A DNA stretch of 64,000 nucleotides, from positions 52,778 through 116,777 of the forward strand of contig MELE01000027.1 of NCBI GenBank assembly GCA_001768615.1. The letters are read 5' to 3'. The notes under the pieces were generated by a model. It saw nothing but the letters and a program-made list of their open reading frames with translations, did no database searches and was not told the origin of the DNA. Position 1 is the first letter of the stretch; each line of letters opens with the position of its first letter. The stretch comes from Acidobacteria bacterium RIFCSPLOWO2_12_FULL_67_14b. GTDB lineage: Bacteria > Acidobacteriota > Vicinamibacteria > Vicinamibacterales > UBA2999. A program made the translations under genes and the position numbers. Positions 3,550 to 63,112 of this stretch are shown one piece after another.

Positions 3550-4795
3550 GTTCGGTTGCGGCGAGCCCGGCCGCACGTCCGGTGGCCCATGCCCAGGCGA
3601 AGTTGTGGCCGCCGATGGGACCAAACGCGTCGAGGATCTCGCCGCACAGGTACAGGCCGGGGCAGCGCTTGCTCTCGAGCGTGCGCTGGTTGATGGCGTC
3701 CAGCGCCACACCGCCGCCGGTGACTTCGGCCTTCTTGTAGCCCTCGTCGCCGATAACCGGGAGCTCGTACGACGTCAGCTTGTCGATCAACGCCGTGCGC
3801 TCGGATCGGCGCAGGCTGCTCGTCCGGCGATCGGCCGGCACGCCGGCCTCGGTCATGAGCTGTTCGGCGAGGCGCGCCGGGACGTGCCTGCCGAGCAGCG
3901 ACGCGACGCTCGCGGATGGCGCGTCGAACCGGGCCGTCCACTCGCGAACGCCCAGCGGGGACCACTGGGCGCGAATTGTCCGGCTGGCCGCCTTCGCCGA
4001 GGCTTCGGCGCCCGAGAAGCCGGACGCCACATCAGGGTGCCGTGTCACCACGTGGGAAATGTCGAGCACGCTCGGACCGCTGTAACCGCGATGCGTGAAC
4101 AGGAACCCGCCGGAGGTCTCGACGGCCCGCCTTCCGCTCTTCGCGCGCAGGCGCGCGTTCAGGGAGACGCCGGCGAGCGCGGTGTGTCCAGCGGCCGGAT
4201 TGCCCAGCAACGGCGTGAGCGCCGGGTAGGTTTCGACCATCCGATGGCCGAACGTTTCCGCGATGCGGAGGCCGGTGCCGTCGCTGCCGGTGGCCGGCAC
4301 CGACAAGCCACCCGTGGCGAGGATCACCCGCATGGCGGTGATCTCGCCTGCTGGCGTCCGCAGCGTGAAGCCCGGCGCGGATGCCACGATGCCGGTGACG
4401 AGCGTGTCGAACTGGAGCCGGACGCCGCGGTCGCGCGCAAGGGCGACAAGCCCGTCGCGCACGTCGCGCGCGCGGTTCGATTGCGGAAAGAGCTTGCCGG
4501 ACGCTTCCTCCAGCGCGAGGGGAATGCCGAGGTCGCGCTCGAAAAACGCGCGCTGCTCGTGAAGGGGCCAGGACTTGAGCATGCCGCGCATCAGGTGCGC
4601 CGGCGAATCGGTGACGAAGCGTTCGGGGGCCGGCACGGAGGGGAGCACGTTGCAGCGGCCGCCGCCGCTGATGAGGATCTTGCGGCCGCCGTCAGCCGTG
4701 CGCTCGATCAGGAGGACGTCGGCGCCCTGCGACGCGGCGAAGATGGCCGCGACGAGGCCGGCCGCCCCTGCGCCGACCACGGCCACAGATGTCAC
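3542..4795 (-). CDS. NAD(P)/FAD-dependent oxidoreductase, HI0933/YhiN-like
   Basis: N-terminal VVGAGAAG Rossmann motif and the ISGGGRCN motif typical of the family. GTG start. Confidence 0.85.
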   Translation of the reverse strand: MTSVAVVGAGAAGLVAAIFAASQGADVLLIERTADGGRKILISGGGRCNVLPSVPAPERFVTDSPAHLMRGMLKSWPLHEQRAFFERDLGIPLALEEASGKLFPQSNRARDVRDGLVALARDRGVRLQFDTLVTGIVASAPGFTLRTPAGEITAMRVILATGGLSVPATGSDGTGLRIAETFGHRMVETYPALTPLLGNPAAGHTALAGVSLNARLRAKSGRRAVETSGGFLFTHRGYSGPSVLDISHVVTRHPDVASGFSGAEASAKAASRTIRAQWSPLGVREWTARFDAPSASVASLLGRHVPARLAEQLMTEAGVPADRRTSSLRRSERTALIDKLTSYELPVIGDEGYKKAEVTGGGVALDAINQRTLESKRCPGLYLCGEILDAFGPIGGHNFAWAWATGRAAGLAATEPS

Positions 4796-4814: not shown

Positions 4815-6263
4815 TCATCGGAACAATTCGTCGATGGGAACGATGTTGATCGGTCCGAGGTTGAGCTGGCGGACCGGGCCTTCAATCACCCGACGATCGC
4901 CGACGATGACGACCGCCATCCTGTCCGGCTGAATGTACCGCGCGGCGGCCTTCTGCAGATCCGCCGCCGTGACCGCGGTCACCTTCGCCACGAACCCGGA
5001 GAACGTGTCGTCGGGCAGGTTGTAGACGACAAGCTCTTCGAGCTTGCGGGCGAGATCGCCGGTAGTCTCGAACTCGCCGGGGAAGCCAAGGGCGACGTAG
5101 TTCTTCGCCTTGGAGAGCTCGTCGCCGGGCACGGGCGTGAGAATGCCGTCGAGCTCGACGAAGAATTCCCTGAGCGCGTCGGCGGTCTTGTCGGTCTGCA
5201 CGCCGGCCGTCGCCAGGAACGGTCCCGGGGATTGGCGCATGTCGAACCCGGAGCTGGCGCCGTAGCTGTAGCCGTTCTTCTCCCGCAGGTTCTGATTGAG
5301 CCGTGACGTGAACGATCCGCCCAGGATGGTGTTGAGCACCTCGAGCGGAACGTAGTCCGGCGTGGAGCGCGGCACGCCCACCCAGCCGATGCGGATCTGC
5401 GACTGCGCGGCTTCCGGTTTGTCCACCAGGTAGATCTGCCGGCGCGTCAGCTGCGGCGCCGCGGGCACGCCCGCAACGAGCGCCGCCATGCCGTCGGCCT
5501 TCCATCCGCCGAAGGATTTTTCCAGCGCCGGCAGCAGCGAGGCCGGCGTCACGTCGCCGACGACGAGCAGCGTGGCGTTGTCGGGGCGATAGTGTGCGCG
5601 GTAGAACGTGCGCAGGTCGTCAACGGTGAACGACTCGATGGCGGGTGGCAGGCCGTTGGCCGACGTGCCGTACCGGTGCGTCGGCCCGAACACGACCCGC
5701 GGAAAGGCGAGCTGGATGAGGGCGGCGGGGTTGTCGCGCGCCTGGAGCAGGCCCGTGAGCCGTTCCTTCCTCAACCGCTCGAGCTCGCCGGCCGGGAAGG
5801 TGGGCCTCAGCCCGACGTCGGCCATCAGCGGCAGCGCGTCGCCGAGCCGCGATACCGGCACCGACATGCGCACGGCCGAATAATCGAACGAGCTCGTCGT
5901 CGACAGGTTGGCGCCGAGGAATTCGATCGCGTCGGCCAGATCGAGCGCCGACCGCGTGCCCGCGCCCTCGTCCAGCATCGCCGCCGCGAGGCTGCCGACG
6001 CCGTACTTGCCGATCGGATCGGCGGCGCTCCCGGAGCGGATGATGAGGTTGACCTGCGCGAGCGGGACCTCGTGGTGCTCGACGATCCACACGGCGAGCC
6101 CATTCGAGAGCCGGCTCTTCTGGATCGCCGGCATCTTCAACGACGGCGCCGGACCAACGGCCGGCGGCTTCGATCGATCGGGCGCCTGGCCGCTGATGGT
6201 CACGCCGATTGAAGCGCAGACGACGGCGACGACATACAGCCGCAGATTAGTACGCAGATTCAT
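4815..6263 (-). CDS. M16 (pitrilysin) family protein, non-catalytic partner (no HxxEH)
   Basis: Internal ATG at 6263 (MNLRTNLRLYVVAVVCAS..., signal-like) inside the artefactual 966-aa ORF 4815..7715. M16 fold-like sequence that lacks the zinc motif. Confidence 0.8.
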   Translation of the reverse strand: MNLRTNLRLYVVAVVCASIGVTISGQAPDRSKPPAVGPAPSLKMPAIQKSRLSNGLAVWIVEHHEVPLAQVNLIIRSGSAADPIGKYGVGSLAAAMLDEGAGTRSALDLADAIEFLGANLSTTSSFDYSAVRMSVPVSRLGDALPLMADVGLRPTFPAGELERLRKERLTGLLQARDNPAALIQLAFPRVVFGPTHRYGTSANGLPPAIESFTVDDLRTFYRAHYRPDNATLLVVGDVTPASLLPALEKSFGGWKADGMAALVAGVPAAPQLTRRQIYLVDKPEAAQSQIRIGWVGVPRSTPDYVPLEVLNTILGGSFTSRLNQNLREKNGYSYGASSGFDMRQSPGPFLATAGVQTDKTADALREFFVELDGILTPVPGDELSKAKNYVALGFPGEFETTGDLARKLEELVVYNLPDDTFSGFVAKVTAVTAADLQKAAARYIQPDRMAVVIVGDRRVIEGPVRQLNLGPINIVPIDELFR

Positions 6264-10856: not shown

Positions 10857-10912
10857 CCCAGCTTCCAGCTTCCAGCACCAAAGCACCAAAGCACCCCAGC
10901 ACCAAAGCACTC
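10857..10912. repeat. direct word array (CAGCTTC x2, AGCACCAA/AGCACCCC x4)
   Basis: Read directly. The reverse complement GGTGCTTTGGTGC resembles the GGTGCTTGGGTGC words at 48750. Confidence 0.85.
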
Positions 10913-11846: not shown

Positions 11847-11922
11847 CAGCCGTCAGCCGTCAGCCTTCGGCCGTCAGCCTTCGAGGGTCAGCTCTGGGCC
11901 GACGGCTGGAGGCTGACGGCAG
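11847..11922. repeat. CGTCAGCC-word hairpin element
   Basis: CGTCAGCC-type words x4 are followed by GCCGACGGCTGGAGGCTGACGG (reverse-complement words). It lies between convergent genes. Confidence 0.85.
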
Positions 11923-11957
11923 TGGCGCGATTCTCGGCAACTCAACTGAATTGTGGG

Positions 11958-14438
11958 CTAGCGTGGTGTGAGGGTCAGGGTTGACTCGGTGGGCCCGGGC
12001 AAGAACGGCGACGGCTCGCCGTTGAGCCACAGGCGGTACTGATCGTTGTAGTGCGGCGACAGGGGATGGCCGCTCTGGCCCGTCGGCACGTGCAGGATCC
12101 CATCCTCCTCGTGGCCCGGCGACACGGCCATGCGCTCCGATGGCCCGGCGCGTGGCGAGTGCGCGCGCGGGGTGTAGACGTCGCCCGGCAGCGGGTCCCC
12201 CGGCATGTTGAGGTAGCGGCCGAAGAACGGGATGCCCGACGCGAGCGGATGCCAGACCTGCGCGCGATTGAACTCGCCCCACGTGCGATCCGATAGCGCC
12301 GGTCCCGACTTGCGCAACTCGGCGATGGCTTCGTCGACCGCAGAGAGGATCAGTTCATCCCACGTCCTGAATTGCGGATCGAGCAGATGCGCGGGCCGCT
12401 CGGTCAGCAGCTGCCAGACCGGGCTCTCGCCGCGGAGCGATCGCGTGTAGTCGAACGACGGATCGATGCGGCGAGCGGGCGAGGTCAGCGTGGTCATCAC
12501 GCGAACCACGAGCGCGGTGCGGAACTGGCGCACCAGGCGATAGGCGACCGACCCCGGCGACGCGCGGCCGGTCCACGTCGTTTCGACGAGGCGGCGGAAT
12601 TCTTCTCGTTGGCGGGACTGAAGTCCCGCCTCTACGGCGCCCGGCTGGCGCAGCGCGTCGAGCACCAGCGTGCGCCAGCGATCGAGAAAGAGCGCGGTGT
12701 CTTCGAGCTGCACGTGCAGCATGTCCTGCGGCGTGGCCTTTACGATCGCCATCAGCCGATCGCGGATCAGGCGGGCGCGGATGCCGTCGGCGTATCCGCC
12801 CTCGCCGATCGTCGCGAGCAGGGCGCCGTCGACGACGGGGGCGTTGGCCGTCCAGATGCGGCCGCCGGCCGGATCGGCGATGCGCGGAAATTCCGCGGCG
12901 GGCAGGTAGCCGTCCCACCGGTGCGTGCCGTCGGCCCACGACGCCGGCGTCAGGCCGTCGTGTCCGACGCGCCGCGGGATGGCGCCGCCGATCGTCCACG
13001 CAATGCGGCCCGTGGTGTCGCCCATCGTGACGTTCTGATTGGGGATGCCGAGGCCGGCGACCGCGATCATCAACTCGTCGACGGTCCGGGCCCGTTCCGG
13101 CCTGGTGATGTCCGACGAGAGCGCGGCGGCGTCGTGCGCGATCCATCGCTGCGCGTACTCGCGGCCCTTCGCATCCTTCCAGACGATGGGGCCCCAGATG
13201 GTCCAGCGGACCTGGATGGTCTTCAAGTCCGCGCCCTTGGCCGCGAGGGTTTCGCGGTAGGTCTCGAACGGCTTCGCGCCGTCCGGCGTCAGGTACTGAG
13301 TCGCGTCGCGGGCGTCGGGATCGATCATCACGAGATCGCTCCAATCGCCGCCGCTGTTGGTGAAGCCCCACGCGACGTGGCCGTTGCTGCCGACGACCAT
13401 GCTCGGCAGGCCAGGGAGCGTCACGCCGTTGATGTGCTCGGTGGCCGCGGGCCCCGCGGGATCGGGAAACGCGAACGACGCGCGATACCAGATGGTCGGC
13501 ACGTTGATGGCCAGGTGCATGTCGTTGGCCACGAGCGCCGTTCCAGACGCCGAGTGCGCGGCATCGACGGCCCAGTTGTTGCTGCCGGCGATCAAATGCT
13601 CATCACGGAAACACTGAAACACCGAAGCAACGAACAAATCCTTTCCCAAAGGCTCGTTGCACGCGGCTTTGAGGAGAGGTTGTTCGGTGTTTCTGTGGTT
13701 CTGTGTTTCTGTGTGATGCATTTTTCGCAAATCGAATACGTCCGGCCCTGGTGTCGGCGGCCTGACGATCGCGGAGCCCACCACCGGCGTGTCCCACTCG
13801 GAGCCGGCCGTTGCCAGGAAGCGGAACATCGGCTCGGGCAGGCTGTCGCGCATGGCGCCCATCGTCTGCTCGAAGAGCCCCTGGCGCCCCTGCAGCGTGT
13901 TGAACATCGCGAGCACGGTGAGGATGGAATCTTCCGGCTTCCACGGCTCGGGCACGGCGCGCAGCACCAGGTACTCGAATGGCGCCGCGCCGAGCGCCGC
14001 GAGGCCGGTGTTGACGCCGGCGGCATAGGCCTCGAGCAGGCGCCGGTACGCCGGCTCGGTCTGTTCGAAGGCGCGATGCGCCACGTTACGGAAGCGATGC
14101 ACGCGCACGGCCTCGTCTGCTGCCAGCGCGCGGGGACCCACAAGACCCGACAACTCGCCGGCGGGCTGCCGCCGTTGCAGATCCATCTGGAAAAAACGGT
14201 CTTGCGCGTGGAGAAATCCCAACGCGCGGGCGACGTCCTCACGGGACTGCCCCGTGATGGTCGGCACACCGAGCGAGTCGCGATCCACTTTGACCGTGGC
14301 CGAAAGGCCAGGGACCCGGGAGGTGCCGTCGACCATCGGCAGGCTGGCGCGCACCTGCGATCGGGCGTAGACGCCGGCCATTACGATGAGGGCGCCGGCC
14401 ACGGCCAGCAGGACGATCACGTATCTCAGGATCCGCAC
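11958..14438 (-). CDS. penicillin acylase family protein (S45 Ntn hydrolase; AHL/penicillin/cephalosporin acylase-like)
   Basis: 826 aa. It carries the beta-subunit N-terminal nucleophile motif GSNNWAVDAAHSASGTALVANDMHL and an N-terminal TM/signal segment. GTG start. Confidence 0.9.
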   Translation of the reverse strand: MRILRYVIVLLAVAGALIVMAGVYARSQVRASLPMVDGTSRVPGLSATVKVDRDSLGVPTITGQSREDVARALGFLHAQDRFFQMDLQRRQPAGELSGLVGPRALAADEAVRVHRFRNVAHRAFEQTEPAYRRLLEAYAAGVNTGLAALGAAPFEYLVLRAVPEPWKPEDSILTVLAMFNTLQGRQGLFEQTMGAMRDSLPEPMFRFLATAGSEWDTPVVGSAIVRPPTPGPDVFDLRKMHHTETQNHRNTEQPLLKAACNEPLGKDLFVASVFQCFRDEHLIAGSNNWAVDAAHSASGTALVANDMHLAINVPTIWYRASFAFPDPAGPAATEHINGVTLPGLPSMVVGSNGHVAWGFTNSGGDWSDLVMIDPDARDATQYLTPDGAKPFETYRETLAAKGADLKTIQVRWTIWGPIVWKDAKGREYAQRWIAHDAAALSSDITRPERARTVDELMIAVAGLGIPNQNVTMGDTTGRIAWTIGGAIPRRVGHDGLTPASWADGTHRWDGYLPAAEFPRIADPAGGRIWTANAPVVDGALLATIGEGGYADGIRARLIRDRLMAIVKATPQDMLHVQLEDTALFLDRWRTLVLDALRQPGAVEAGLQSRQREEFRRLVETTWTGRASPGSVAYRLVRQFRTALVVRVMTTLTSPARRIDPSFDYTRSLRGESPVWQLLTERPAHLLDPQFRTWDELILSAVDEAIAELRKSGPALSDRTWGEFNRAQVWHPLASGIPFFGRYLNMPGDPLPGDVYTPRAHSPRAGPSERMAVSPGHEEDGILHVPTGQSGHPLSPHYNDQYRLWLNGEPSPFLPGPTESTLTLTPR
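13601..13718. repeat. CACAGAAAC-word hairpin element embedded in frame in the acylase CDS
   Basis: CATCACGGAAACACTGAAACACCGAAG...CGGTGTTTCTGTGGTTCTGTGTTTCTGTGTGATG. It is translated as MHHTETQNHRNTEQ...FVASVFQCFRDEH, just upstream of the SNNW processing site. A sibling copy lies at 26055..26163. Confidence 0.85.
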
Positions 14439-14509: not shown

Positions 14510-15610
14510 ATGATGCACCATGAAATCGTGCCCTCGACTTCCACTCCTGCGATGAGCGCCCTGGACACGCGCTGGAAGCCCCTGGCGGCGCGGGATGCCA
14601 GCGCCGATGGGACGTTCGTGTACGGCGTGACGTCGACCGGCATTTACTGCCGGCCCAGCTGCCCCAGCCGGCGTCCGCGCGCGGATCGGGTTCGGTTCTT
14701 CGACACCACCACCGATGCGCGCCAGGCCGGGTTCAGGGCGTGCAAGCGCTGCCGGCCCGACACCGTCGGCCTGGCGCAGCCCGGCGTGGAGGCGGTCCGG
14801 CGGGCGTCGGCCTATCTCGCCGTCCACGCGGATCAATCGGTGACGCTCAGCCATCTGGCTCGCGTCGCCGCCATGAGCCCGTACCATCTCCAACGCCGCT
14901 TCAAGGCCATCGTCGGCCTCTCGCCCCGCGAGTATCAGGCGGCGGTCCGTGCCGGACGCCTGCGTTCGAGCCTGCGCGACGGGCGCGAGGTGACCACGGC
15001 GATTTACGAGGCGGGATACGGATCGCCGAGCCGCGTCTACGAGGCGCCCCCCACCGGACGGGGCATGTCACCTTCGAGCTATCGCCGCGGCGGCGCCGGC
15101 ATGCGCATCGGCTATTCGACCATGAGCAGCCCGGTGGGCCAGGTGCTGATCGCCGCCACCGAAAACGGGGTTTGCGCGGTCAAGCTCGGTGAGAGTGCCC
15201 CGGCGCTTGCGCGCGACCTGCGACGCGAGTACCCGGCGGCAGAGATCGTGCCGAACCAGAAACCGCGGAAGGCGTGGGTCACGGCGATTGCCGAACACCT
15301 GCGAGGCGTGACGCCGTCGCTCGATCTGCCCATCGACGTCACGGCCACGGCGTTCCAGTGGAAAGTGTGGCGCGCCCTTCAGCGGATCCCCTATGGCGAC
15401 ACCCGCGCCTACGCGGAGGTTGCCAAGGCGATCGGCAAGCCCAGCGCCGCGCGGGCCGTCGCCCGCGCCTGCGCCACCAACCCGGTCGCCCTGGTCGTCC
15501 CGTGCCACCGGGTGGTCCCGTCCGCCGGGGGGGTGGGCGGCTATCGCTGGGGGGCGGAGCGAAAGAAGCGGATCCTTGCACATGAGCAGCGCCCGGCCAG
15601 GGGGAGGTGA
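14510..15610 (+). CDS. ada: bifunctional Ada: methylphosphotriester-DNA methyltransferase/AraC-type regulator plus O6-methylguanine-DNA methyltransferase
   Basis: N-terminal 4-Cys Ada zinc site (YCRPSCPS...CKRCRP), AraC-type HTH (SPYHLQRRFK), and C-terminal PCHRVV active site. Confidence 0.9.
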   Translation: MMHHEIVPSTSTPAMSALDTRWKPLAARDASADGTFVYGVTSTGIYCRPSCPSRRPRADRVRFFDTTTDARQAGFRACKRCRPDTVGLAQPGVEAVRRASAYLAVHADQSVTLSHLARVAAMSPYHLQRRFKAIVGLSPREYQAAVRAGRLRSSLRDGREVTTAIYEAGYGSPSRVYEAPPTGRGMSPSSYRRGGAGMRIGYSTMSSPVGQVLIAATENGVCAVKLGESAPALARDLRREYPAAEIVPNQKPRKAWVTAIAEHLRGVTPSLDLPIDVTATAFQWKVWRALQRIPYGDTRAYAEVAKAIGKPSAARAVARACATNPVALVVPCHRVVPSAGGVGGYRWGAERKKRILAHEQRPARGR

Positions 15611-15620
15611 CCGGATCTGC

Positions 15621-15693
15621 GCACCGTGGCACCCACCCCTTAGGCACCTTTGGCACACTAGGCACCCTTAGGCACGTTAGTATTTAGCGTGCC
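15621..15693. repeat. GGCACC-word array ending in a small hairpin over the next start codon
   Basis: gtggcaccc / ttaggcacc / tttggcacac / taggcaccc / ttaggcacg, then ttagtatttag, then cgtgcc. The 3' arm contains the GTG start of 15689. Confidence 0.8.
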
Positions 15694-16918
15694 TTCGATT
15701 CGTTACGGCGTCTCCCCCTGGACCGGCGCCGTTCCAGCCAAGAAGCGACCCGAGTTTCCGGCCTACCGCGGCGTGAGCACCGCGCCCGCCGTGATCGTGG
15801 GCGGCGGCATGGCCGGCGCCATGACGGCGTACGCGTGCGCCGCCGCCGGCGTAAAGACGATCCTGCTCGAGGCCGATCGCGTCGGGCTGGGCGGCAGCAG
15901 CCGCGCCGCCGGCCTGCTGTCGAACGAGGCGTGCGAGTCGTACCGGGACCTGGAGGCGCGGGCCGGCCGTCGCGCCGCGCGCGCCCTGTTCGAGCTGTCC
16001 GAGCGCGCGCCGCGCGAGCTGGCGACCACCGTCAAGCGGCTCGGCATCAAGGCGGGTCTCAACCTTCGGGATGCGTTGCGCGTGGTGCCGCCCGGGTCAT
16101 CCGACAAGTCGATCCGCCGCGAGATCGACGATCGACGGGCCGCGGGCCTGAACGGGTCGTGGGTCGTTCCGGCGTCGGTGATGCGCCAGACGGGAATCGC
16201 CTCCGCCGGCGCCATGCGGCTGCACGACTGGGGCTTTGTCGATCCCTATCGCCTGACCCTCGGGTTTCTGGCCGCCGCCACCAAGCGCGGCGTCAAGGTC
16301 TTCGAACGATCGCGCGTCAGGAAGATCACCTTCAACCGCAAGAACACCACGGCCTTTCTCGACGGCGGCGGGGCGATCACGACGTCGAACCTCCTGATCT
16401 GCATCGGCGAGCCGACCGATCTCTTCAAGCCGCTCAAGCGCCACCTGCGGCACGAGCATCGCTACGTGGTGCTGACCGAGCCCCTGCCCGCCGCGGTGCG
16501 CGCGGAAATGGGGCAGCGCGCCACGATCCTCACCGATACCGAGCTGCCGCCACACCGGTTGTGGCTGACGCCGGACCACCGCGCCCTGTTTGCGGGCGCG
16601 GATCAGAAGCGTCCTCCGGATCGGCTGCGGGACAAGACGCTGGTGCAACGAACGGGACAGTTGATGTACGAGCTCTCGCGGCTCTATCCTGCCATTTCGG
16701 GCGCCGCGCCGGCGTTTGGCTGGGACGTGCCGCTGGCGCACCCGGTGGACAGCGTGTTGTATGCCGGCGCACACCGGAACTTCCCCCATCACCAGTTTGC
16801 GTTCGGCACGTCGCACGACCCCGCCCGCGCGTATCTGGCCAGCCGGATCCTGGCGCGCGGCGTCATTGGCAAGGCAGAGAAAGAGGACGAGTTCTTCTCG
16901 TTCGCGCGGAACCTGTAG
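15689..16918 (+). CDS. FAD-dependent oxidoreductase (DAO family)
   Basis: VIVGGGMAGAMTAYACAAAG dinucleotide-binding motif and DAO-like length (409 aa). GTG start. Confidence 0.8.
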   Translation: MPSIRYGVSPWTGAVPAKKRPEFPAYRGVSTAPAVIVGGGMAGAMTAYACAAAGVKTILLEADRVGLGGSSRAAGLLSNEACESYRDLEARAGRRAARALFELSERAPRELATTVKRLGIKAGLNLRDALRVVPPGSSDKSIRREIDDRRAAGLNGSWVVPASVMRQTGIASAGAMRLHDWGFVDPYRLTLGFLAAATKRGVKVFERSRVRKITFNRKNTTAFLDGGGAITTSNLLICIGEPTDLFKPLKRHLRHEHRYVVLTEPLPAAVRAEMGQRATILTDTELPPHRLWLTPDHRALFAGADQKRPPDRLRDKTLVQRTGQLMYELSRLYPAISGAAPAFGWDVPLAHPVDSVLYAGAHRNFPHHQFAFGTSHDPARAYLASRILARGVIGKAEKEDEFFSFARNL

Positions 16919-24778: not shown

Positions 24779-26044
24779 ATGTCATTTTCACGACGGCAAT
24801 TCGTCAAAGGCGGCGTCACCGCGTTTACCTTCGGATTCGCCGCGCCGCGGCTGATGTACGACATCGCCTTCGGCCAGGCCCTCGGGGCGCGGAACCTCGT
24901 GGTGGTGTACCTCAGCGGCGGCAACGACTCGCTGAGCACCATCGTTCCGTATCGCGATTCGAACTACGTGAGCCGCCGGCCGACGCTGGCCATTGCGGCC
25001 GCCAACGTCCTGCAGATCGGCTCCGACTCCTCTGGCGTCGAACTGGGCTTGCACCCGCGATTGACCGGCCTCAAGGCGATCTTCGATGCCGGCCGGCTCG
25101 CCGTGATCCAGCGCACCGGCTACGCGAACCAGAGCCGCTCGCACTTCACCGGCTACGACATCTGGGGCACGGCGAGCACGACCAACACGTCGGGCACGGG
25201 CTGGCTTGGCCGCTATCTGGACCTGGTCCCGGCGCCCGTCGATCCGCTGGTGGCGTGGAACACGCAGCGGGAGACGCCGCGCCCGCTCATGGCGCGCACC
25301 GTCGGTGTGCCGGCGATCACCAGTCCGGCCACCTACGCGTTCTCGGGCGCGAACCCGAATAGCCCCGTAGAGTCCGGCTACGAACGCACCGCGCAGACGA
25401 AGATCTCGTCACACATCCCGGTGGACCGCCCGCACCTGGCGTTCGTCAATTCGACGACCCAGGCGGCGCTCGGGACCCTGGATCGGGTGGCGACCGTCGC
25501 CACCTATCGTCCGGCCAACACCTACCCCAACAACGGCTTCGGCCAGGCGCTCACGGCGGTGGCCGGCGCCATGAACAAGCAGATCGGCACCAAGGTGTTC
25601 TGGGTGCAGACCGGCGGCTTCGACACCCATGCGTCGCAAGGCACGAACCAGGGCGCCTACTTCAACCTGATGGCGACGCTCGGTGACGGCCTCAAGGCGT
25701 TCTACGACGACCTGAGCGCGCAGGGCCTGTTGAGCAGCACACTGGTGCTGGTGTATTCGGAATTCGGCCGCCGCATCACCGAGAACGGCAGCCAGGGCAC
25801 CGACCACGGTGCCGGCGCCAACATGATAGTGCTCGGCGGCGGCGTGCGCGGCGGTATCTACGGCACGGCGCCGAACCTCAACACCGATCCCGCCAACCCG
25901 ACGCTCGAAAACAACGCCGGCGATGTGAAGTACGAAACCGACTTCCGCGCCGTCTACGCGAAGATCCTCGATAGCTGGCTGGGTGCGAACTCGGTCACCA
26001 TCCTGGGCGGCGACTATCGCGGGGGCGCGCCGGCGATCCTATAG
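24779..26044 (+). CDS. DUF1501 domain-containing protein (sulfatase-fold, Tat signal)
   Basis: Tat-like SRRQFVKGG N-terminus and TGGFDTHASQ motif. Confidence 0.85.
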   Translation: MSFSRRQFVKGGVTAFTFGFAAPRLMYDIAFGQALGARNLVVVYLSGGNDSLSTIVPYRDSNYVSRRPTLAIAAANVLQIGSDSSGVELGLHPRLTGLKAIFDAGRLAVIQRTGYANQSRSHFTGYDIWGTASTTNTSGTGWLGRYLDLVPAPVDPLVAWNTQRETPRPLMARTVGVPAITSPATYAFSGANPNSPVESGYERTAQTKISSHIPVDRPHLAFVNSTTQAALGTLDRVATVATYRPANTYPNNGFGQALTAVAGAMNKQIGTKVFWVQTGGFDTHASQGTNQGAYFNLMATLGDGLKAFYDDLSAQGLLSSTLVLVYSEFGRRITENGSQGTDHGAGANMIVLGGGVRGGIYGTAPNLNTDPANPTLENNAGDVKYETDFRAVYAKILDSWLGANSVTILGGDYRGGAPAIL

Positions 26045-26054
26045 CCGCCAAATA

Positions 26055-26163
26055 CATCACACGGAAACACAGAAACACAGAAACACTGAAAAGTCTTTTT
26101 TCAATGCCTCTGGCATTTCAAGAAGAGTCTCCGTGCTTCCGTGTTTCTGTGCTTCTGTGTATG
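26055..26163. repeat. CACAGAAAC-word hairpin element, intergenic copy
   Basis: CATCACACGGAAACACAGAAACACAGAAACACTGAAAAG, loop, then TCCGTGCTTCCGTGTTTCTGTGCTTCTGTGTATG. It lies between convergent genes. Confidence 0.9.
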
Positions 26164-26166
26164 TAT

Positions 26167-26826
26167 TTACTTCGCGTACTTGACCAGCGCGTCTCTCCAT
26201 GTGCCCACGGGCTCGGGCGCGCCGCCCAATCGATCAAACACGATCTGTCCCGTTCGATAGGCCGTGCCGTAGAAGCGCTCGTTGGCATCCCGATCCTGTC
26301 GAATCGTCGAGCCGTTCACCGTCACGCCGGCGAAGAGCCCTCTCGAGCGTGAATAGCTGAGGATCTGCGCGCGCATCTGGATGTCGGTCGCGGCGCTCGC
26401 ATCACGGCCGATCGGCCCCGCCGCCACCGACGCGTCGGCGCCGATCTTGAACTGGTTCTTCACCAGTTGCTCGAGCCCCCGCTGGTTGTTCACCACCAGG
26501 ATCAGGTCGATTGCCTGCGCGCCGATCTGCGCGCCGAAGCTGCCGCCCGTGATCGTGAGGAAGGCGGGCGCCGACCACGTGCCGGACTTCCGATCGCGAA
26601 CGCTGATGATGCCGCGCCCGCGCTGGCCGCCGATCACGAAGCCGCCCTTGAGCAGCGAGGGGAAGACGGCGATGGCCTCGGCCTTCTCGAGAATCGCGCC
26701 GGGGATGGCCTTGTCGCCGGCCGCCATCATCTCTTCGATCACGACGGTGGACTCGCTGATGCGTTTGGCTTCGTCGGAGGTTTGTGCGGCGGCGGTGATC
26801 AACAGGGCAACGAATAGTGTTTTCAT
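26167..26826 (-). CDS. SYLF (Ysc84/DUF500) lipid-binding domain protein, secreted
   Basis: The ATG at 26826 has AGGAAGG upstream. Signal peptide MKTLFVALLITAAAQ and SYLF-like core GGFVIGGQRGRG...GGSFGAQIGA. Confidence 0.85.
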   Translation of the reverse strand: MKTLFVALLITAAAQTSDEAKRISESTVVIEEMMAAGDKAIPGAILEKAEAIAVFPSLLKGGFVIGGQRGRGIISVRDRKSGTWSAPAFLTITGGSFGAQIGAQAIDLILVVNNQRGLEQLVKNQFKIGADASVAAGPIGRDASAATDIQMRAQILSYSRSRGLFAGVTVNGSTIRQDRDANERFYGTAYRTGQIVFDRLGGAPEPVGTWRDALVKYAK

Positions 26827-26845
26827 GGTGCCTTCCTGCGAAGGG

Positions 26846-27787
26846 TCAGCCGGGGCCCCCGCCACGCGGACTTTGCGTGGTGGGGTGGTAGACCCCTAGT
26901 ATGTCCTCGAGCGCCGGTTCGAGCGTGCGAAAGCCGAATCGGAACCCCAGCTCTTCCGCGTGCACCGGGAGCACACGCTGCCCCGTCAGCAGGAGCGACG
27001 CCATCTCTCCCAACGCCAGCTTCAACACAAACGCCGGCGCCTGAAACACGGCCGGACGATGAAGCACGCGCCCGAGGACGCGGGTGAACTCATGGTTGGT
27101 CACCGGCTCGGGCGCGGTGACATTGAAGGCCCCCACCGCGCGATCGCTCGCGATCAGCCAGAGCACCATCGACACCCAGTCGCTGACGTGCACCCACGGC
27201 ATGTACTGCCGGCCCGACGCGATCGTCGCTCCGAGCGCCAGCTTGAACGCCGGCAACATGCGCGGCAGCGCACCACCCTTCGCATCGAGCACGAGCCCGG
27301 TGCGGACCATCGCCACGCGGGTGCCAGGCCCTTCCGCAGCCCTCGCCTCCTGTTCCCATTCGACGCACAAACGGGCAAGAAAGTCCGCCCCCGGCTCGGC
27401 GCGTTCGGTAATGGTCTCGTCGCCGCGTGGGCCGTAATAACCGACGCCCGACGCGCTCACGAAGATGCGCGGCGGCGTCTGACACGTCGCCATCGCACGC
27501 ACGAGGGTGCGGGTGGCCAGCAGCCGGCTGTCGCGCAGCGCGGCCTTCCGGGCGGAGCTCCAGCGGCGGTCGGCGATGCCCTCGCCGGCGAGGTTCACGA
27601 CCGCATCCACGCCGTCCAGGTGACCGGCCAGCGAGCCGGTCGATCCATCCGGCTGCCAGGCCACGTCGGTCCGGTGGCCGGGACGAGGCCGCCGGGTGAG
27701 GATGACGAGGCGGTGGCGATCGTGTTCGAGGCGGGCGGCGAGCTTGCGCCCGAGAAAGCCCGACCCGCCCGCAAGGACGATGGTCAT
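26846..27787 (-). CDS. TIGR01777/YfcH-type epimerase family oxidoreductase (SDR fold plus DUF1731)
   Basis: MTIVLAGGSGFLGRKL NAD-binding motif and C-terminal QRVLP...GF.F.F..LE.AL. The alternative GTG start at 27805 is less likely. Confidence 0.85.
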   Translation of the reverse strand: MTIVLAGGSGFLGRKLAARLEHDRHRLVILTRRPRPGHRTDVAWQPDGSTGSLAGHLDGVDAVVNLAGEGIADRRWSSARKAALRDSRLLATRTLVRAMATCQTPPRIFVSASGVGYYGPRGDETITERAEPGADFLARLCVEWEQEARAAEGPGTRVAMVRTGLVLDAKGGALPRMLPAFKLALGATIASGRQYMPWVHVSDWVSMVLWLIASDRAVGAFNVTAPEPVTNHEFTRVLGRVLHRPAVFQAPAFVLKLALGEMASLLLTGQRVLPVHAEELGFRFGFRTLEPALEDILGVYHPTTQSPRGGGPG

Positions 27788-36231: not shown

Positions 36232-36338
36232 GAGACCACGAAGTTCACGAAGATCATCACGAAGACCGCGAAGCGCCTCTTGCTCAAAATGCCTTCGTGA
36301 TCTTCGTGGTTGCCTTCGTGATCTTCGTGGTTTCTTCT
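36231..36338. repeat. ACCACGAAG-word hairpin element, copy 2
   Basis: AGAGACCACGAAGTTCACGAAGATCATCACGAAGACCGCGAAG, loop, then CCTTCGTGATCTTCGTGGTTGCCTTCGTGATCTTCGTGGTTTCTTCT. It lies between convergent genes and touches both stop codons. Confidence 0.9.
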
Positions 36339-37660: not shown

Positions 37661-37736
37661 AAAGCAAACCACGAAGGTCACGAAGGCTTTAGATCAACTT
37701 GTCTTCGTGATCTTCGTGGTCTTCGTGGTTGTCTTT
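37661..37736. repeat. ACCACGAAG-word hairpin element, copy 3
   Basis: AAAGCAAACCACGAAGGTCACGAAGG, loop ctttagatcaacttgt, then CTTCGTGATCTTCGTGGTCTTCGTGGTTGTCTTT. Confidence 0.9.
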
Positions 37737-38854: not shown

Positions 38855-40458
38855 GTCTTCAGCTCCGCGAGATCCTTGTCGGCCGAAGCCCAGCCCTTGA
38901 GGGCGAGGCCGAACTCGCGCTTCGCGGTGGCGGCGTTGCCGTCGTGCTCGGCGACCAGGGCCAGGGCGTAGTGCGTGCCGGCGTAGGCCGGGTCGTGTTC
39001 GAGCAGCAGCTGCGCCATCCGGCCCGCGAAGGTCCAGTCGCCGACGTCGCGCGCGGCGCGCGCCATCGCTTCCAGGCGGAACGTCGACTGGCTCCACGCA
39101 TCCGGCCCCGGCAGCGATCGCCATTTCTGCGCGGCGCGCTCCATGACCTGCCGGCCCTTCTCGCGCTGCGCGGTGCGCAGCAGGAACTCCCCCTGCAGCT
39201 GCTCGAGCGCGATCGCGGCCAGGCCTTGCCCGCCCTGCGCACTGCGCAGCGCTTTCAACGCCGCATTCGACGCGGCCGCCGCGTCACCGGGGCGCTTGGT
39301 GGCGAGCAGCGCAAAGCCGGCTTCGATGTGTCCCGTCGCCTGGACCACGAGGTTCGGATGCGCGACGAGGATCCTGGCCGCCGCGAGCGCTTCTTCGGGC
39401 CGGTTGCGCGCCAGCAGGAACATCGGCCACTCGCGCTTGTTCACCGCCTGCACCAGCAGGTTCGACGACAACGCGAACGACTGCTTCAGCAGCGGCTCCG
39501 CTTTCCGCACCTGTCCGACGTATTGATACGAGGCCGCAAGCAGGTCGAGATTGTGCTGGTGATGCCAGTCGAACTCGGCCGGGATTTTCTCGCTGCTGAA
39601 GTAGGCGCGCTGCAGGCGGTCGGCCGCCTCGAATTCGGCGATGGCGTCGGCGGGGCGGCCCGTCCGCCGCAGCTCGTGTCCGTGCATGTGTCGCGCATGC
39701 GGGATCGCCGGCGCCTGCGCCGCATACGCAGCCGCGTGCGCGAGCGCCTCGGCCATGCGTCCGCCGTTCTCGGCCGCGTGCGCCAGGTAATGCCGCGCCG
39801 CGAAATGGTCCGGCGCCACTTTCAACGCGCGCTCGTAAAACGGGATCGACGCCGCCACCGACCCCTGCCCGCGATCGGCGGGATCCGGCGAGGCCGCCAT
39901 GCCGCGCTTCAACAGCAGCTCGACGTCGGACGGGAATGCCACGAGCGCCGCATCCAGGGCCGCGCGATACGGGGGCAACTTGCTCGCGTCGCCGGGCGCG
40001 TCTTCGGCGGCCATCTGCAGCGCCCGCGCCTCGATGTGCCGCCGCTCATGATCCGACACCTTCGGTGCCATCGCCCGGGCGCGCTCGATCGCCCGCCGCG
40101 CATCCGCGGTCAGGTTCAGCTCGATGTAGGCGTAGCTCAGGCCGACGTCGGCGAGCGCGAGTCCCGGATCGATCCTGAGCGCCTGGTGAAACGATCGCGC
40201 CGCTTCGATCCAGACGAACGAATGCAGGTAGGACAGTCCCTGGTCGAAGAAGGCCTGCGCGTCGGCCGATGCCGTGGTGACCGTGTCGTGCGAGACGCCG
40301 ATGCCCGCGTGCACGGTGACGGGGCGCTCGAGCAGCTCTTGCGGAACGACGGGCAGGGTGTGTTGGGCGTGCTGCGCCCAGACAAGGCAGAAGGCAGAAG
40401 GCACAAGGCAGAAGTACGAGGACAAAAGGAAAAGGCAGAAGGAAGAAGAGCGCTTCAC
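38833..40458 (-). CDS. TPR repeat protein, probably secreted
   Basis: 541-aa ORF with a GTG start, a repeat-encoded signal-like N-terminus MKRSSSFCLFLLSSYFCLVPSAFCLVWA and multiple TPR-like helices. The last residues, TIADFGR, are encoded by the repeat arm. Confidence 0.75.
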   Translation of the reverse strand: MKRSSSFCLFLLSSYFCLVPSAFCLVWAQHAQHTLPVVPQELLERPVTVHAGIGVSHDTVTTASADAQAFFDQGLSYLHSFVWIEAARSFHQALRIDPGLALADVGLSYAYIELNLTADARRAIERARAMAPKVSDHERRHIEARALQMAAEDAPGDASKLPPYRAALDAALVAFPSDVELLLKRGMAASPDPADRGQGSVAASIPFYERALKVAPDHFAARHYLAHAAENGGRMAEALAHAAAYAAQAPAIPHARHMHGHELRRTGRPADAIAEFEAADRLQRAYFSSEKIPAEFDWHHQHNLDLLAASYQYVGQVRKAEPLLKQSFALSSNLLVQAVNKREWPMFLLARNRPEEALAAARILVAHPNLVVQATGHIEAGFALLATKRPGDAAAASNAALKALRSAQGGQGLAAIALEQLQGEFLLRTAQREKGRQVMERAAQKWRSLPGPDAWSQSTFRLEAMARAARDVGDWTFAGRMAQLLLEHDPAYAGTHYALALVAEHDGNAATAKREFGLALKGWASADKDLAELKTIADFGR

Positions 40459-40489
40459 AACGCCATTCTGCCTTCTGCCTTCTGCCTTG
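40383..40489. repeat. GGCAGAAGG-word hairpin: perfect 21-bp inverted repeat (40383..40403 and 40469..40489) with 65-nt loop
   Basis: CAAGGCAGAAGGCAGAAGGCA and its exact reverse complement were read directly. The loop contains more GGCAGAAG words and the GTG start at 40458. Confidence 0.9.
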
Positions 40490-40492
40490 TTC

Positions 40493-44187: not shown

Positions 44188-44262
44188 GGGTGCCTGGGGT
44201 GCGTACGGTGACTAGGGTGCCTACGGGTTGGTGCCGGGTGCGGGTGCCGGTGCCGGTGCCGG
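44188..44262. repeat. GGGTGC/GGTGCCG word array
   Basis: gggtgcctggggtgcgtacggtgactagggtgcctacgggttggtgccgggtgcgggtgccggtgccggtgccggg lies in a divergent intergenic region. Confidence 0.8.
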
Positions 44263-44295
44263 GCGCCATGGTGCTAGGATGGCGGGGTCCTGACC

Positions 44296-48733: not shown

Positions 48734-48749
48734 CTCTCTATTCTATAAG

Positions 48750-48879
48750 GGTGCTTGGGTGCTTGGGTGCGTGGGTGCTTATGTGCGCACCTACGCACCT
48801 ACGCACCTACGCACCTACGCACCTACGCACCTACGCACCTATGCACCCACGCACCCACGCACCCACGCACCCACGCACC
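48750..48879. repeat. about 16 consecutive 8-nt units: GGTGCTTG-type x4, CTACGCAC x6 (perfect), CTATGCAC, CCACGCAC x4
   Basis: Read directly. The left units are the reverse complement of the right units. G3N5 x4 motifs occur on the + strand (48749..48775) and on the - strand (48846..48872). Confidence 0.9.
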
Positions 48880-48887
48880 TTGTTCTT

Positions 48888-55788: not shown

Positions 55789-55871
55789 GATCAAAGGAAA
55801 CCACGAAGAACACGAAGATCACCACGAAGATCACGAAGTCTATTGATCAAAGAGTTCTTCGTGGTCTCTGT
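55789..55871. repeat. ACCACGAAG-word element, copy 4, inside the his operon (hisG-hisD gap)
   Basis: GATCAAAGGAAACCACGAAGAACACGAAGATCACCACGAAGATCACGAAG, loop tctattgatcaaagag, then TTCTTCGTGGTCTCTGTTT. The arms are unequal (4 words versus 1). Confidence 0.9.
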
Positions 55872-60877: not shown

Positions 60878-60965
60878 AAAAGAAACCACGAAGATCACGA
60901 AGCACCTCGAAGAACACGAAGTAATCTCTTCCGAACGCATTCTTCGTGGCCTTCGTGGTTTCGTT
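60878..60965. repeat. ACCACGAAG-word hairpin element, copy 5
   Basis: AAAAGAAACCACGAAGATCACGAAGCACCTCGAAGAACACGAAG, loop, then TCTTCGTGGCCTTCGTGGTTTCGTT. Confidence 0.9.
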
Positions 60966-63053: not shown

Positions 63054-63112
63054 AGAGCCTCCCAGGGCGTGCAGCGTTACCGTATGGAAGGTGGATTCTA
63101 ACGCGTTTTCGG

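Follow-up and report, generated by a model that had tools for sequence, protein, structure and literature searches.

How does a gene whose product is expected to cut itself in two remain intact when a long palindromic repeat lies in its middle? This question is raised by a 64,000-nucleotide (nt) stretch of the genome of Acidobacteria bacterium RIFCSPLOWO2_12_FULL_67_14b (contig MELE01000027.1; hereafter, the window), in which a gene for an S45 (penicillin-amidase family) acylase precursor contains a 130-nt hairpin element built of 8-nt words. An earlier note on this DNA had placed the repeat in the spacer peptide that such precursors discard, and had explained the tolerance of the insertion by this position. 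We analyzed the element, its host gene and the relatives of both, and consider it probable that a dispersed, non-autonomous hairpin repeat has resided in the linker between the α and β parts of the acylase since an ancestor of the clade, and that it has been inherited vertically, with maintenance of its palindrome, in a spacer that would be removed from the mature enzyme.

The element is an imperfect palindrome whose words are of the CACAGAAA type (see Table 1 for the coordinates of all features). Its inverted repeat consists of two 44-nt arms with 77% complementarity, and the words of the second arm, in the order GTGTTTCT, GTGGTTCT and GTGTTTCT, complement those of the first. On the minus strand, which is that of the gene, the element is translated from part of K239 to part of L282 (KMHHTETQNHRNTEQPLLKAACNEPLGKDLFVASVFQCFRDEHL); arm 1 forms the 3΄ arm on the mRNA and encodes ...FVASVFQCFRDEHL, and arm 2 forms the 5΄ arm and encodes KMHHTETQNHRNTE. 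The G+C content is 0.50 in the element, compared with approximately 0.70 in the remaining gene. We searched the window for the pattern GAAACACNGAAACAC with two or fewer mismatches and obtained nine matches, all located within positions 13608-13709 or 26064-26155, compared with an expectation of 0.21 from 100 shuffled sequences, none of which gave nine. The second cluster belongs to an intergenic copy of the family. As the earlier note had proposed for the intergenic element at 26055..26163, the two copies match in their ends as well as their words: both are bounded by AAAT[G/A]CATCAC...GTGATG[C/T]ATTT, and their 5΄ arms are identical at 36 of 41 positions (counted in the alignment), with unrelated loops. 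The in-frame repeat, which had been placed at 13601-13718, is real and extends further at both ends.

The long hairpin that had been anticipated in the middle of the mRNA was recovered by RNA folding. The gene strand forms one long stem of –53.3 kcal/mol (z = –5.9), a value equalled by none of 200 shuffled sequences, and for the intergenic copy the fold energy is –54.3 kcal/mol (z = –8.9). A consensus scan for intrinsic terminators found none at 13594-13723, where the stem on the gene strand is followed by GAUCGCCGGC. A comparison of the whole window with Rfam gave no match at the gathering score, and the permissive mode returned only far sub-threshold matches resembling microRNA precursors.

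The host open reading frame (ORF) runs intact through the repeat, as had been claimed, and encodes 826 amino acids laid out as an N-terminal hydrophobic signal or anchor, an α part, a linker and a β part. A protein with 100% identity to it is recorded from the metagenome-assembled genome Acidobacteria bacterium RIFCSPLOWO2_12_FULL_67_14b. Residues 49-812 match positions 2-666 of the 675 in the Pfam profile PF01804 (E = 1.5e-151), which spans both the α and β parts; both chain types of solved acylases match as well, and the relatives in the PDB include D-succinylase (7ea4, E = 4e-49) and the α and β chains of glutaryl-7-ACA acylase. The identification of the host as a penicillin-acylase-type S45 precursor was thus confirmed. 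Precursors of this family consist of a signal peptide, the α subunit, a spacer and the β subunit, and the spacer is removed autocatalytically (PMC11241749).

We examined whether the processing site could be located. The residues G285, S286, N287, N288 and W289 were unchanged across 45 orthologues, and Ser286 aligned with residue 1 of the solved β chains 4hst_B, 1fm2_B, 35sz_C and PvdQ 2wyb_B; in other words, the chains that start at this residue are those of glutaryl-7-ACA acylases, PvdQ and one penicillin-acylase-family protein. In addition, Ser170 of the uncleaved cephalosporin acylase precursor 1keh aligned with Ser286. With a serine as β residue 1 and a small residue, Gly285, before it, Ser286 is the predicted N-terminal nucleophile of the β subunit, in agreement with the role that the earlier note had assigned to the serine of the SN motif. 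The translation quoted there for the repeat was also correct: M240-H281 is followed by L-I-A-G and then by Ser286. The repeat peptide accordingly ends four residues before Ser286, and not, as had been written, four before GSNNWAV, since only three residues separate it from the glycine of GSNNW. On the α side, the last conserved motif is FDLR (residues 235-238). That the spacer is excised, and where the α subunit ends, would follow from homology with the processed acylases; a phmmer search of residues 150-300 alone against the PDB gave no match by which this C-terminus could be placed. An AlphaFold2 model from a 45-sequence alignment had a mean pLDDT (predicted local distance difference test) of 59, with values below 50 in the linker and likewise in many core segments, and was not used. 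An intact ORF, invariant catalytic motifs and a dN/dS of approximately 0.17 led us to discard the idea that the gene is a pseudogene.

The linker was compared among the best 120 relatives of the acylase (68-80% identity, 773-843 amino acids). For DNA, 80 orthologous loci were fetched, and the linker was extracted from 59 of them. The linker that holds the element, bounded by FDLR on one side and by the invariant GSNNW on the other, is by far the most variable stretch of the protein, ranging from approximately 25 to approximately 68 residues between D236 and G285 across the 120 orthologues. In most relatives, the linker contains peptides such as HHTEARKHGNTE...FRASVIPCFRD or RATEARKHG...LRASVLPWLVRD; in other words, translated CACGGAAN words and their complements. 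At least four unrelated kinds of repeats occupy the linker among close orthologues: (a) hairpins of CACGGAAN / CACAGAGAC words, in 17 loci and the window, with fold z values from –1.6 to –10; (b) CCCTGAGCGAC...GTCGAAGGG palindromes of the CCCTGAGCG...GTCGAAGGG type, in L005, L010, L016 and L023; (c) GGAACAATCCGCCTAAAGGCGGATGC...GCATCCGGCTTTAGCCGGATTGTTCC, in L007 and L046, which is a doublet of repetitive extragenic palindromes (REPs); and (d) tandem CAAGACCT octamers with no inverted partner, in L003 and L006. For kind (c), a Y1-transposase gene is located directly upstream of the acylase gene in L046 and L004 (PF01797, E = 4e-12; tblastn), and both of these genes are flanked by single REPs of the GGTCCGCCTTTAGGCGGACC type, which is the kind-(c) repeat. 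This arrangement of a Y1 gene with REPs upstream of the acylase is partly present in L006.

The linkers of P0109 and P0013 resemble deletion remnants, and in orthologues of 65% identity or less, the linkers are G+C-rich and unstructured, with fold z values near 0. We had considered the element-free orthologues P0048, P0060, P0110, P0120, L017 and L019 as representatives of the ancestral empty site and dropped them, because their spacers resemble remnants of half an element (QARVTPQ..NPNA compared with QATETQRLRAISPNA) and are therefore more likely to be deletions. The occurrence of unrelated repeats, nested insertions and deletions in the same linker supports the idea of a permissive site, that is, of a sink for repeats, as a discarded linker would predict. 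The earlier explanation of why the insertion is tolerated is consequently retained in part: the site is variable and permissive, the excision itself would follow from homology, and the segment is under some selection.

Several observations concern the neighborhood of these repeats. The acylase spacer of P0005 (L203 10706-10888) contains two kind-(b) units nested at mirror positions, one in each arm of a kind-(a) hairpin, in a composite structure of –102 kcal/mol; such mirrored nesting may have arisen by hairpin-templated copying or by insertion targeted to a stem. In L015, a CACGGAG word hairpin (3740-3830) lies just upstream of the acylase start, and the spacer carries one too. In L083, an array (5644-5666) lies just upstream of a remote homologue of the acylase, at 28% identity.

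The earlier note had proposed to check whether the roughly 40 residues of the repeat are lineage-specific, and they are not. Judged by the peptide signature, a homologous hairpin of kind (a) is present in 71 of the 120 orthologues, which dates the insertion to an ancestor of the clade, and its carriers are interspersed with those of the other kinds on a tree built without the linker. The subtypes of kind (a) have the same boundaries and frame (ACG GAA encoding T-E; CGT GAT encoding R-D) and align over three words per arm; these common boundaries and this frame speak for a single ancestral insertion. Orthologues with a homologous spacer of equal length and sequence would, according to the note, speak against its reading, and the observations go part of the way: in the three closest orthologues, which are 80% identical and syntenic, the spacer is equal in length and approximately 74% identical in sequence. 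Among the orthologues with DNA, the three closest are L201, L202 and L203, which are syntenic (an Ada-like gene upstream and a gene of 287 amino acids downstream). In L201 and L202, the linker is co-linear and gap-free, and the loop, which is unrelated to that of the intergenic copy, is homologous too.

We compared the divergence of the element with that of the gene. Between the window and L201 or L202, the synonymous divergence (dS) was 0.68-0.79 and the difference at four-fold sites was 0.40-0.44, compared with only 0.18-0.21 for the element. Sorted by first, second and third codon position, the differences within the element numbered 5, 7 and 12; 7, 5 and 17; and 8, 10 and 18. This excess at third positions indicates a peptide that is translated and under weak constraint. 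The G+C content of the orthologous elements is still 0.42-0.62, in genomes of approximately 0.68.

The pairing of the stem was evaluated with an alignment of 18 sequences, 24 stem pairs and column shuffles; RNAalifold was also run. The fraction of paired stem cells was 86%, compared with 81% in shuffled alignments (0 of 500 shuffles reached 86%), and cells changed on both sides numbered 38, compared with 20 (0 of 500). In slid controls, 33-54% of cells were paired. Compensatory changes occurred in 11 of the 24 stem pairs, and the GAA/TTC and GAG/CTC forms switch jointly in all words of both arms. The variant is common to the copies of one genome: both copies in the window have GAAACAC, and both copies in L015 have GGAGGCAC. 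The stem is nevertheless not inviolable; over the same span, it folds at –59.1 kcal/mol in the window, compared with –49.5 in L201 and –47.0 in L202. Taken together, the element is old, translated and under some constraint, and is a tolerated passenger rather than a recent accident.

The family extends far beyond the acylase. In each arm, a terminal TCAC precedes three to four 8-nt words, CAC[A/G]GA[A/G]N, and the loop between the arms is variable. We scanned 185,579 genomes, one per species, for the threefold pattern CACRGARN and found at least 120 loci. The matches listed come from Acidobacteriota (Terriglobales, Vicinamibacteria, Blastocatellia and others), Planctomycetota, Gemmatimonadota, Verrucomicrobiota, Actinomycetota, Alpha-, Beta-, Gamma- and Zetaproteobacteria and more; among these 120 genome matches, none is an orthologous acylase. 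Both arms were present within 300 nt in 35 of the 120 loci, with ends of the form (A)TTCAC-CACAGAGG-CACAGAGA-CACAGAGA ... TCTCTGTG-TCTCTGTG-CCTCTGTG-GTGAA(T) and with unrelated loops of 4-200 nt, some of which hold another palindrome. Copies from the same genome are alike in arms and termini and not always in loops, for example the two copies in L115. At least 120 further stretches were found in IMG/VR contigs classed as viral, which offer a possible route for spread between phyla. Some of these contigs (L204-L323; for example, L254, L244, L216 and L265) carry four or five arrays, and some arrays lie near portal-like genes.

Long ORFs span several copies of the family, and Pfam confirmed three hosts, from unrelated bacteria. 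In an Lhr helicase, two copies lie in inter-domain linkers (DEAD/Helicase_C and WH_Lhr/DEAD_assoc). In a Pol III alpha-family protein, a copy lies inside the HhH domain, whose match takes up 128 residues for a profile of 90 positions. MnmG has one word array (SPRRHGGTE), in frame inside the GIDA domain, and its C-terminal helical domain has an unexplained excess of approximately 70 residues. The word structure itself is favorable to translation: CAC[A/G]GA[A/G]N allows no stop codon on its own strand, and its complement allows one (TGA) only if N is T; the period of 8 samples all three frames every 24 nt, giving peptides such as HRGTETQR and SLCLCASV. The arms, with hardly any stop codon in all six frames, are thus almost always open, which makes survival in frame likely.

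We compared the element with described repeats. Full-text searches found its DNA or peptide strings in no paper. Palindromic repeats in frame in functional genes are already known from the Rickettsia palindromic elements (RPEs; Ogata et al. 2000, Science 290:347, as summarized in PMC10969869), whereas no earlier description appears to exist of the present family, of its octamer-word arms and breadth, or of its occurrence in a pro-peptide that is expected to be excised. RPEs are the closest in behavior: both are dispersed palindromes of approximately 100-150 bp that are found in frame in unrelated functional genes at fold-compatible positions and are then inherited, and here the palindrome lies in intact conserved genes (the acylase, Lhr and the Pol III alpha-family protein, with a word array in MnmG). 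However, there is no sequence relationship; the hosts are free-living bacteria of many phyla, the arms are tandem 8-nt words, the family also occurs on viral contigs, and the site in the acylase is a pro-peptide expected to be removed, in contrast to a surface loop of the mature protein in RPEs. Membership in the RPE family is implausible given the organism and the word structure, and the likeness is behavioral.

Bacterial MITEs (short for miniature inverted-repeat transposable elements), such as Correia, ERIC, Nezha and BOX (reviewed in PMC10969869), are likewise small, with terminal inverted repeats, a variable interior, many copies and no coding capacity, and are mostly intergenic with occasional in-frame fusions. 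The present element has 44-nt arms in a total of 130 nt, copies in the same genome have common arms and different interiors, and dispersal is evident from two copies in 64 kb and from at least 120 loci each in species genomes and viral contigs. Two features that define a MITE were not recognized: in the 8-kb neighborhoods examined, we found no parent insertion sequence whose ends match those of the element, and we saw no target-site duplication in the aligned copies. The inverted repeats of the element are internally repetitive octamer arrays, which, to our knowledge, have not been reported in bacterial MITEs.

REP and REPIN elements, which are mobilized by RAYT (Y1) transposases (Bertels and Rainey 2011, PMC3116915; Di Nocera et al. 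2013, PMC3733652), share with the family the formation of hairpins as extragenic repeats, long vertical persistence and concerted evolution within a genome. In L046 and L007, moreover, the same acylase spacer is occupied by a true doublet of REPs with a Y1-transposase gene beside it. However, a REPIN consists of two short (20-40 nt) palindromes with a GTAG or CGTC head in inverted orientation, whereas the window element is a single long octamer-word stem with a TCAC head. A tblastn search with the L046 protein found no Y1 transposase in the window, none was seen beside the other copies in the neighborhoods examined, and the Y1 genes of L046 and L004 are flanked by the different, GGTCCGCCTTTAGGCGGACC-type repeat. 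We therefore rejected membership among REPs and REPINs: the element lacks short-palindrome units and a GTAG or CGTC head, and no RAYT gene accompanies it in the window or its relatives in these neighborhoods.

The short tandemly repeated repetitive (STRR) sequences of heterocystous cyanobacteria are heptamers, and Vioque reportedly found in 1997 that STRR copies lengthen a helix of RNase P RNA. Both systems therefore comprise arrays of 7-8-nt words that, when paired, can extend a dispensable helix in a functional gene product. In contrast to the present family, STRR sequences are different in sequence and confined to cyanobacteria, and we know of no description of them as discrete hairpin units with conserved termini or in frame in proteins. 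With respect to the host site, the S45 spacers of Escherichia coli penicillin G acylase, cephalosporin acylase and PvdQ (PMC11241749) occupy the same position between α and β, directly upstream of β Ser1, and vary in length; the described spacers are ordinary coding sequence, whereas the one in the window is mostly a translated repeat element.

We weighed three other explanations. That the segment is an ordinary variable linker, with palindromy and likeness to 26055..26163 arising from chance or low complexity, would agree with the known length variation of S45 spacers and with the D-succinylase linker, which is of similar length in the alignment. This reading is refuted by the nine word matches against 0.21 expected (0 of 100 shuffles), the z values of both folds, the termini common to both copies and the homology of the element across the 18 aligned loci, and we give it practically no credence. 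More substantial is the possibility that the hairpin serves the acylase gene as an adaptive cis-element, its strong stem being kept by selection for a useful role between the two subunits and its repeat likeness reflecting origin only. It could make translation pause, so that the α part folds or is exported ahead of the emergence of the β part, or it could set expression as a site of processing by RNase III or by other means. Retention of the hairpin in 71 of 120 orthologues, the compensatory changes in 11 of 24 stem pairs, a divergence two to three times slower than that of synonymous sites, a low G+C content that has not been erased, and the frequent presence of another hairpin-forming repeat (kinds b and c) in orthologues without kind (a) are all as this explanation would have it. 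However, a hairpin is absent there from approximately one quarter of the close orthologues (kind d or no repeat) and from all distant ones, with fold z values near 0, and these orthologues keep every catalytic motif, the stem is decaying in L201 and L202 relative to the window, and the same element occurs in unrelated genes and between genes. Moreover, the third-position differences point to the peptide rather than to RNA pairing, and the stem has no U-tract and is thus unlike an intrinsic terminator. We consider an adaptive cis-element unlikely.

Alternatively, a short palindrome might have grown in place by slippage of 8-nt words, with template switching mirroring changes between the arms, in a purely mutational process with no transposition. 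The joint switching of words in both arms between GAA/TTC and GAG/CTC would be expected under such a process, as would the symmetry of the extra units in both arms of L203. The window also holds many hairpins of other words (CACGAAG, AAGGCAG, GGTGCNT and CAGCCGT), word hairpins of unrelated words stand just 3΄ of the acylase stop in both the window and L201, and neither a transposase nor a target duplication was found. Growth in place does not predict, however, that the copies in the window have approximately 13 nt of non-word termini in common, or that the same TCAC-CACAGAGG... ends recur with unrelated loops across phyla and viral contigs; in addition, even with the loop counted, the element is far lower in G+C content than its host. 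This explanation appears quite improbable to us.

According to the preferred reading, that of a dispersed repeat tolerated in a discarded linker, an ancestor of a Vicinamibacteria-like clade would have acquired a copy in the α/β linker of this S45 acylase. Having landed in frame with no stop codon, the copy would have left the gene intact, and in translation the hairpin now makes up the central part of the spacer between the subunits. Homology with penicillin G acylase, cephalosporin acylase and PvdQ suggests that autoproteolysis at Gly285/Ser286 would free the serine nucleophile and that the spacer would then be trimmed; if so, the approximately 25 residues beyond the shortest orthologue spacers would never be present in the mature enzyme, which may be the reason why the site tolerates this element and several others. 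During later vertical inheritance, the palindrome and its words would have been kept by selection or by correction from arm to arm and from copy to copy, and the encoded peptide would be under weak purifying selection as a working spacer.

Several results weigh against this reading. The third-position excess and slow divergence could reflect a functional peptide or hairpin rather than mere tolerance. Across 0.92 Mb of acylase loci and the window, nearly all copies of the word family lie in the acylase spacer, and only two lie outside it (window 26050 and L015 3740-3830); within the clade, the behavior of the spacer copy resembles that of a conserved part of the gene more than that of a mobile element. 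ORF clustering in the 8-kb neighborhoods of 120 and then 240 loci found no gene shared among them. As for a transposase-bearing parent with the same ends, no arm pair was 0.8-4 kb apart in the 120 genome loci listed, and the search for arms 0.3-4 kb apart returned two cases only, at 0.5 and 0.6 kb. No flanking direct repeat was recognized as a target-site duplication in the aligned copies; the true empty sites are too diverged to mark the junctions. A blastn search of plasmid and phage collections with the consensus element gave no match, a result that says little because the low-complexity filter probably masks the query. That the family is mobile is suggested by its dispersal, its shared termini and its presence on viral contigs.

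A more far-reaching version of the preferred reading can be formulated tentatively. In this version, the octamer-word hairpin (TCAC + [CAC(A/G)GA(A/G)N]n ... inverted) would be an undescribed pan-bacterial, phage-carried selfish or semi-domesticated DNA with no transposase of its own, whose almost stop-free arms would allow it to survive in linkers and pro-peptides (the acylase spacer, the Lhr linkers, the HhH domain of the Pol III alpha-family protein, and MnmG). It would have been kept in the acylase clade since before the orthologues diverged to approximately 68% identity, with its palindrome actively maintained, and would now serve as spacer peptide and/or mRNA structure between the subunits. 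We regard this version as possible, and doubtful in its full extent.

The locus serves as an experiment of nature on the places at which foreign sequence can be taken up by a protein: the segment of the precursor that is expected to be discarded has gathered at least four repeat families in one clade, with invariant catalytic motifs on its flanks. A further point of interest is the repeat family itself, with arms that are unusual and internally repetitive. For metagenomes, there is a practical consequence: protein families, gene calls and alignments are inflated and distorted by such elements, whose footprints are the peptides HRGTETQR and SLCLCASV.

Table 1. Positions of the features discussed; those with no locus number refer to the window
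Feature	Position	Strand	Evidence or remarks
S45 (penicillin-amidase family) Ntn-hydrolase precursor gene	11958..14438	minus	intact ORF, 826 amino acids, GTG start
Gly285-Ser286 codons, predicted autoproteolytic scissile bond	13581..13586	minus	invariance and solved β-chain starts
Word-hairpin element, 130 nt	13594..13723	.	inverted repeat, word statistics, G+C dip, RNA fold, termini common with 26050..26168
Arm 1 (+ strand reading)	13594..13637	.	AAATGCTCATCAC, then words GGAAACAC, TGAAACAC, CGAAGCAA
Loop region, ~42 nt, small internal stem	13638..13679	.	
Arm 2	13680..13723	.	three GTGTTTCT/GTGGTTCT-type words, then GTGATGCATTT
Second family copy, 119 nt	26050..26168	.	occupies gap between convergent ORFs 24779..26044 (+) and 26167..26865 (-)
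Lhr helicase, in-frame host	L115 3-3977	-	
Pol III alpha-family protein, in-frame host	L191 3969-7520	+	
MnmG, in-frame host	L094 777-2996	+	
Y1 (IS200-like, RAYT-type) transposase gene	L046 207-686		REPs at 70-93, 716-734
Y1 (IS200-like, RAYT-type) transposase gene	L004 346-792		REPs at 275-298, 815-838, 855-880, 918-945
Other word array	10858-10910		
Other word array	11847-11930		
Other word array	15637-15700		
Other word array	36232-36335		
Other word array	37670-37728		
Other word array	40384-40490		
Other word array	44188-44267		
Other word array	48749-48880		
Other word array	55797-55866		
Other word array	60885-60950		

The window is rich in other arrays of 7-9-nt words, namely CAGCCGT, CCTTAGGCA/GGTGCCTAA, CACGAAG, AAGGCAG, GGTGCTTG/CGCACCTA and AGCACCAA, and GGTGCCTAA word hairpins also occur in L002 and L013. 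Most of the arrays that were folded form long hairpins (for example, –69.7, –78.3, –82.9 and –79.3 kcal/mol), whereas those at 10858-10910, 55797-55866 and 60885-60950 fold weakly or have no inverted partner. At strict settings, a general-purpose detector of word hairpins failed to find most of the known cases, and its output was taken as qualitative only. By ORF reading, these arrays lie at gene ends rather than inside genes, and the one at 11847-11930 is directly 3΄ of the acylase stop. The orthologous gap in L201 (3615-3690), before the convergent downstream gene, contains GGTTCAN/GTGAACC words, compared with CAGCCGT/GACGGCTG in the window; unrelated words at the same gap indicate that hairpins turn over at a fixed site.

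On the other side of the acylase gene, an Ada-like gene is encoded divergently at 14510-15610 (+), with Ada_Zn_binding, HTH_AraC and methyltransferase DNA-binding domains according to the records of its orthologues, and this arrangement is kept in L202, L203 and the P0012 contig. Finally, positions 62941-62986 hold a perfect 15-nt tandem repeat (ACATTATTCTGAGTA x3.1) that is unusually A+T-rich for the genome, and it is followed at 63001-63058 by a 27-nt repeat present in 2.1 copies.

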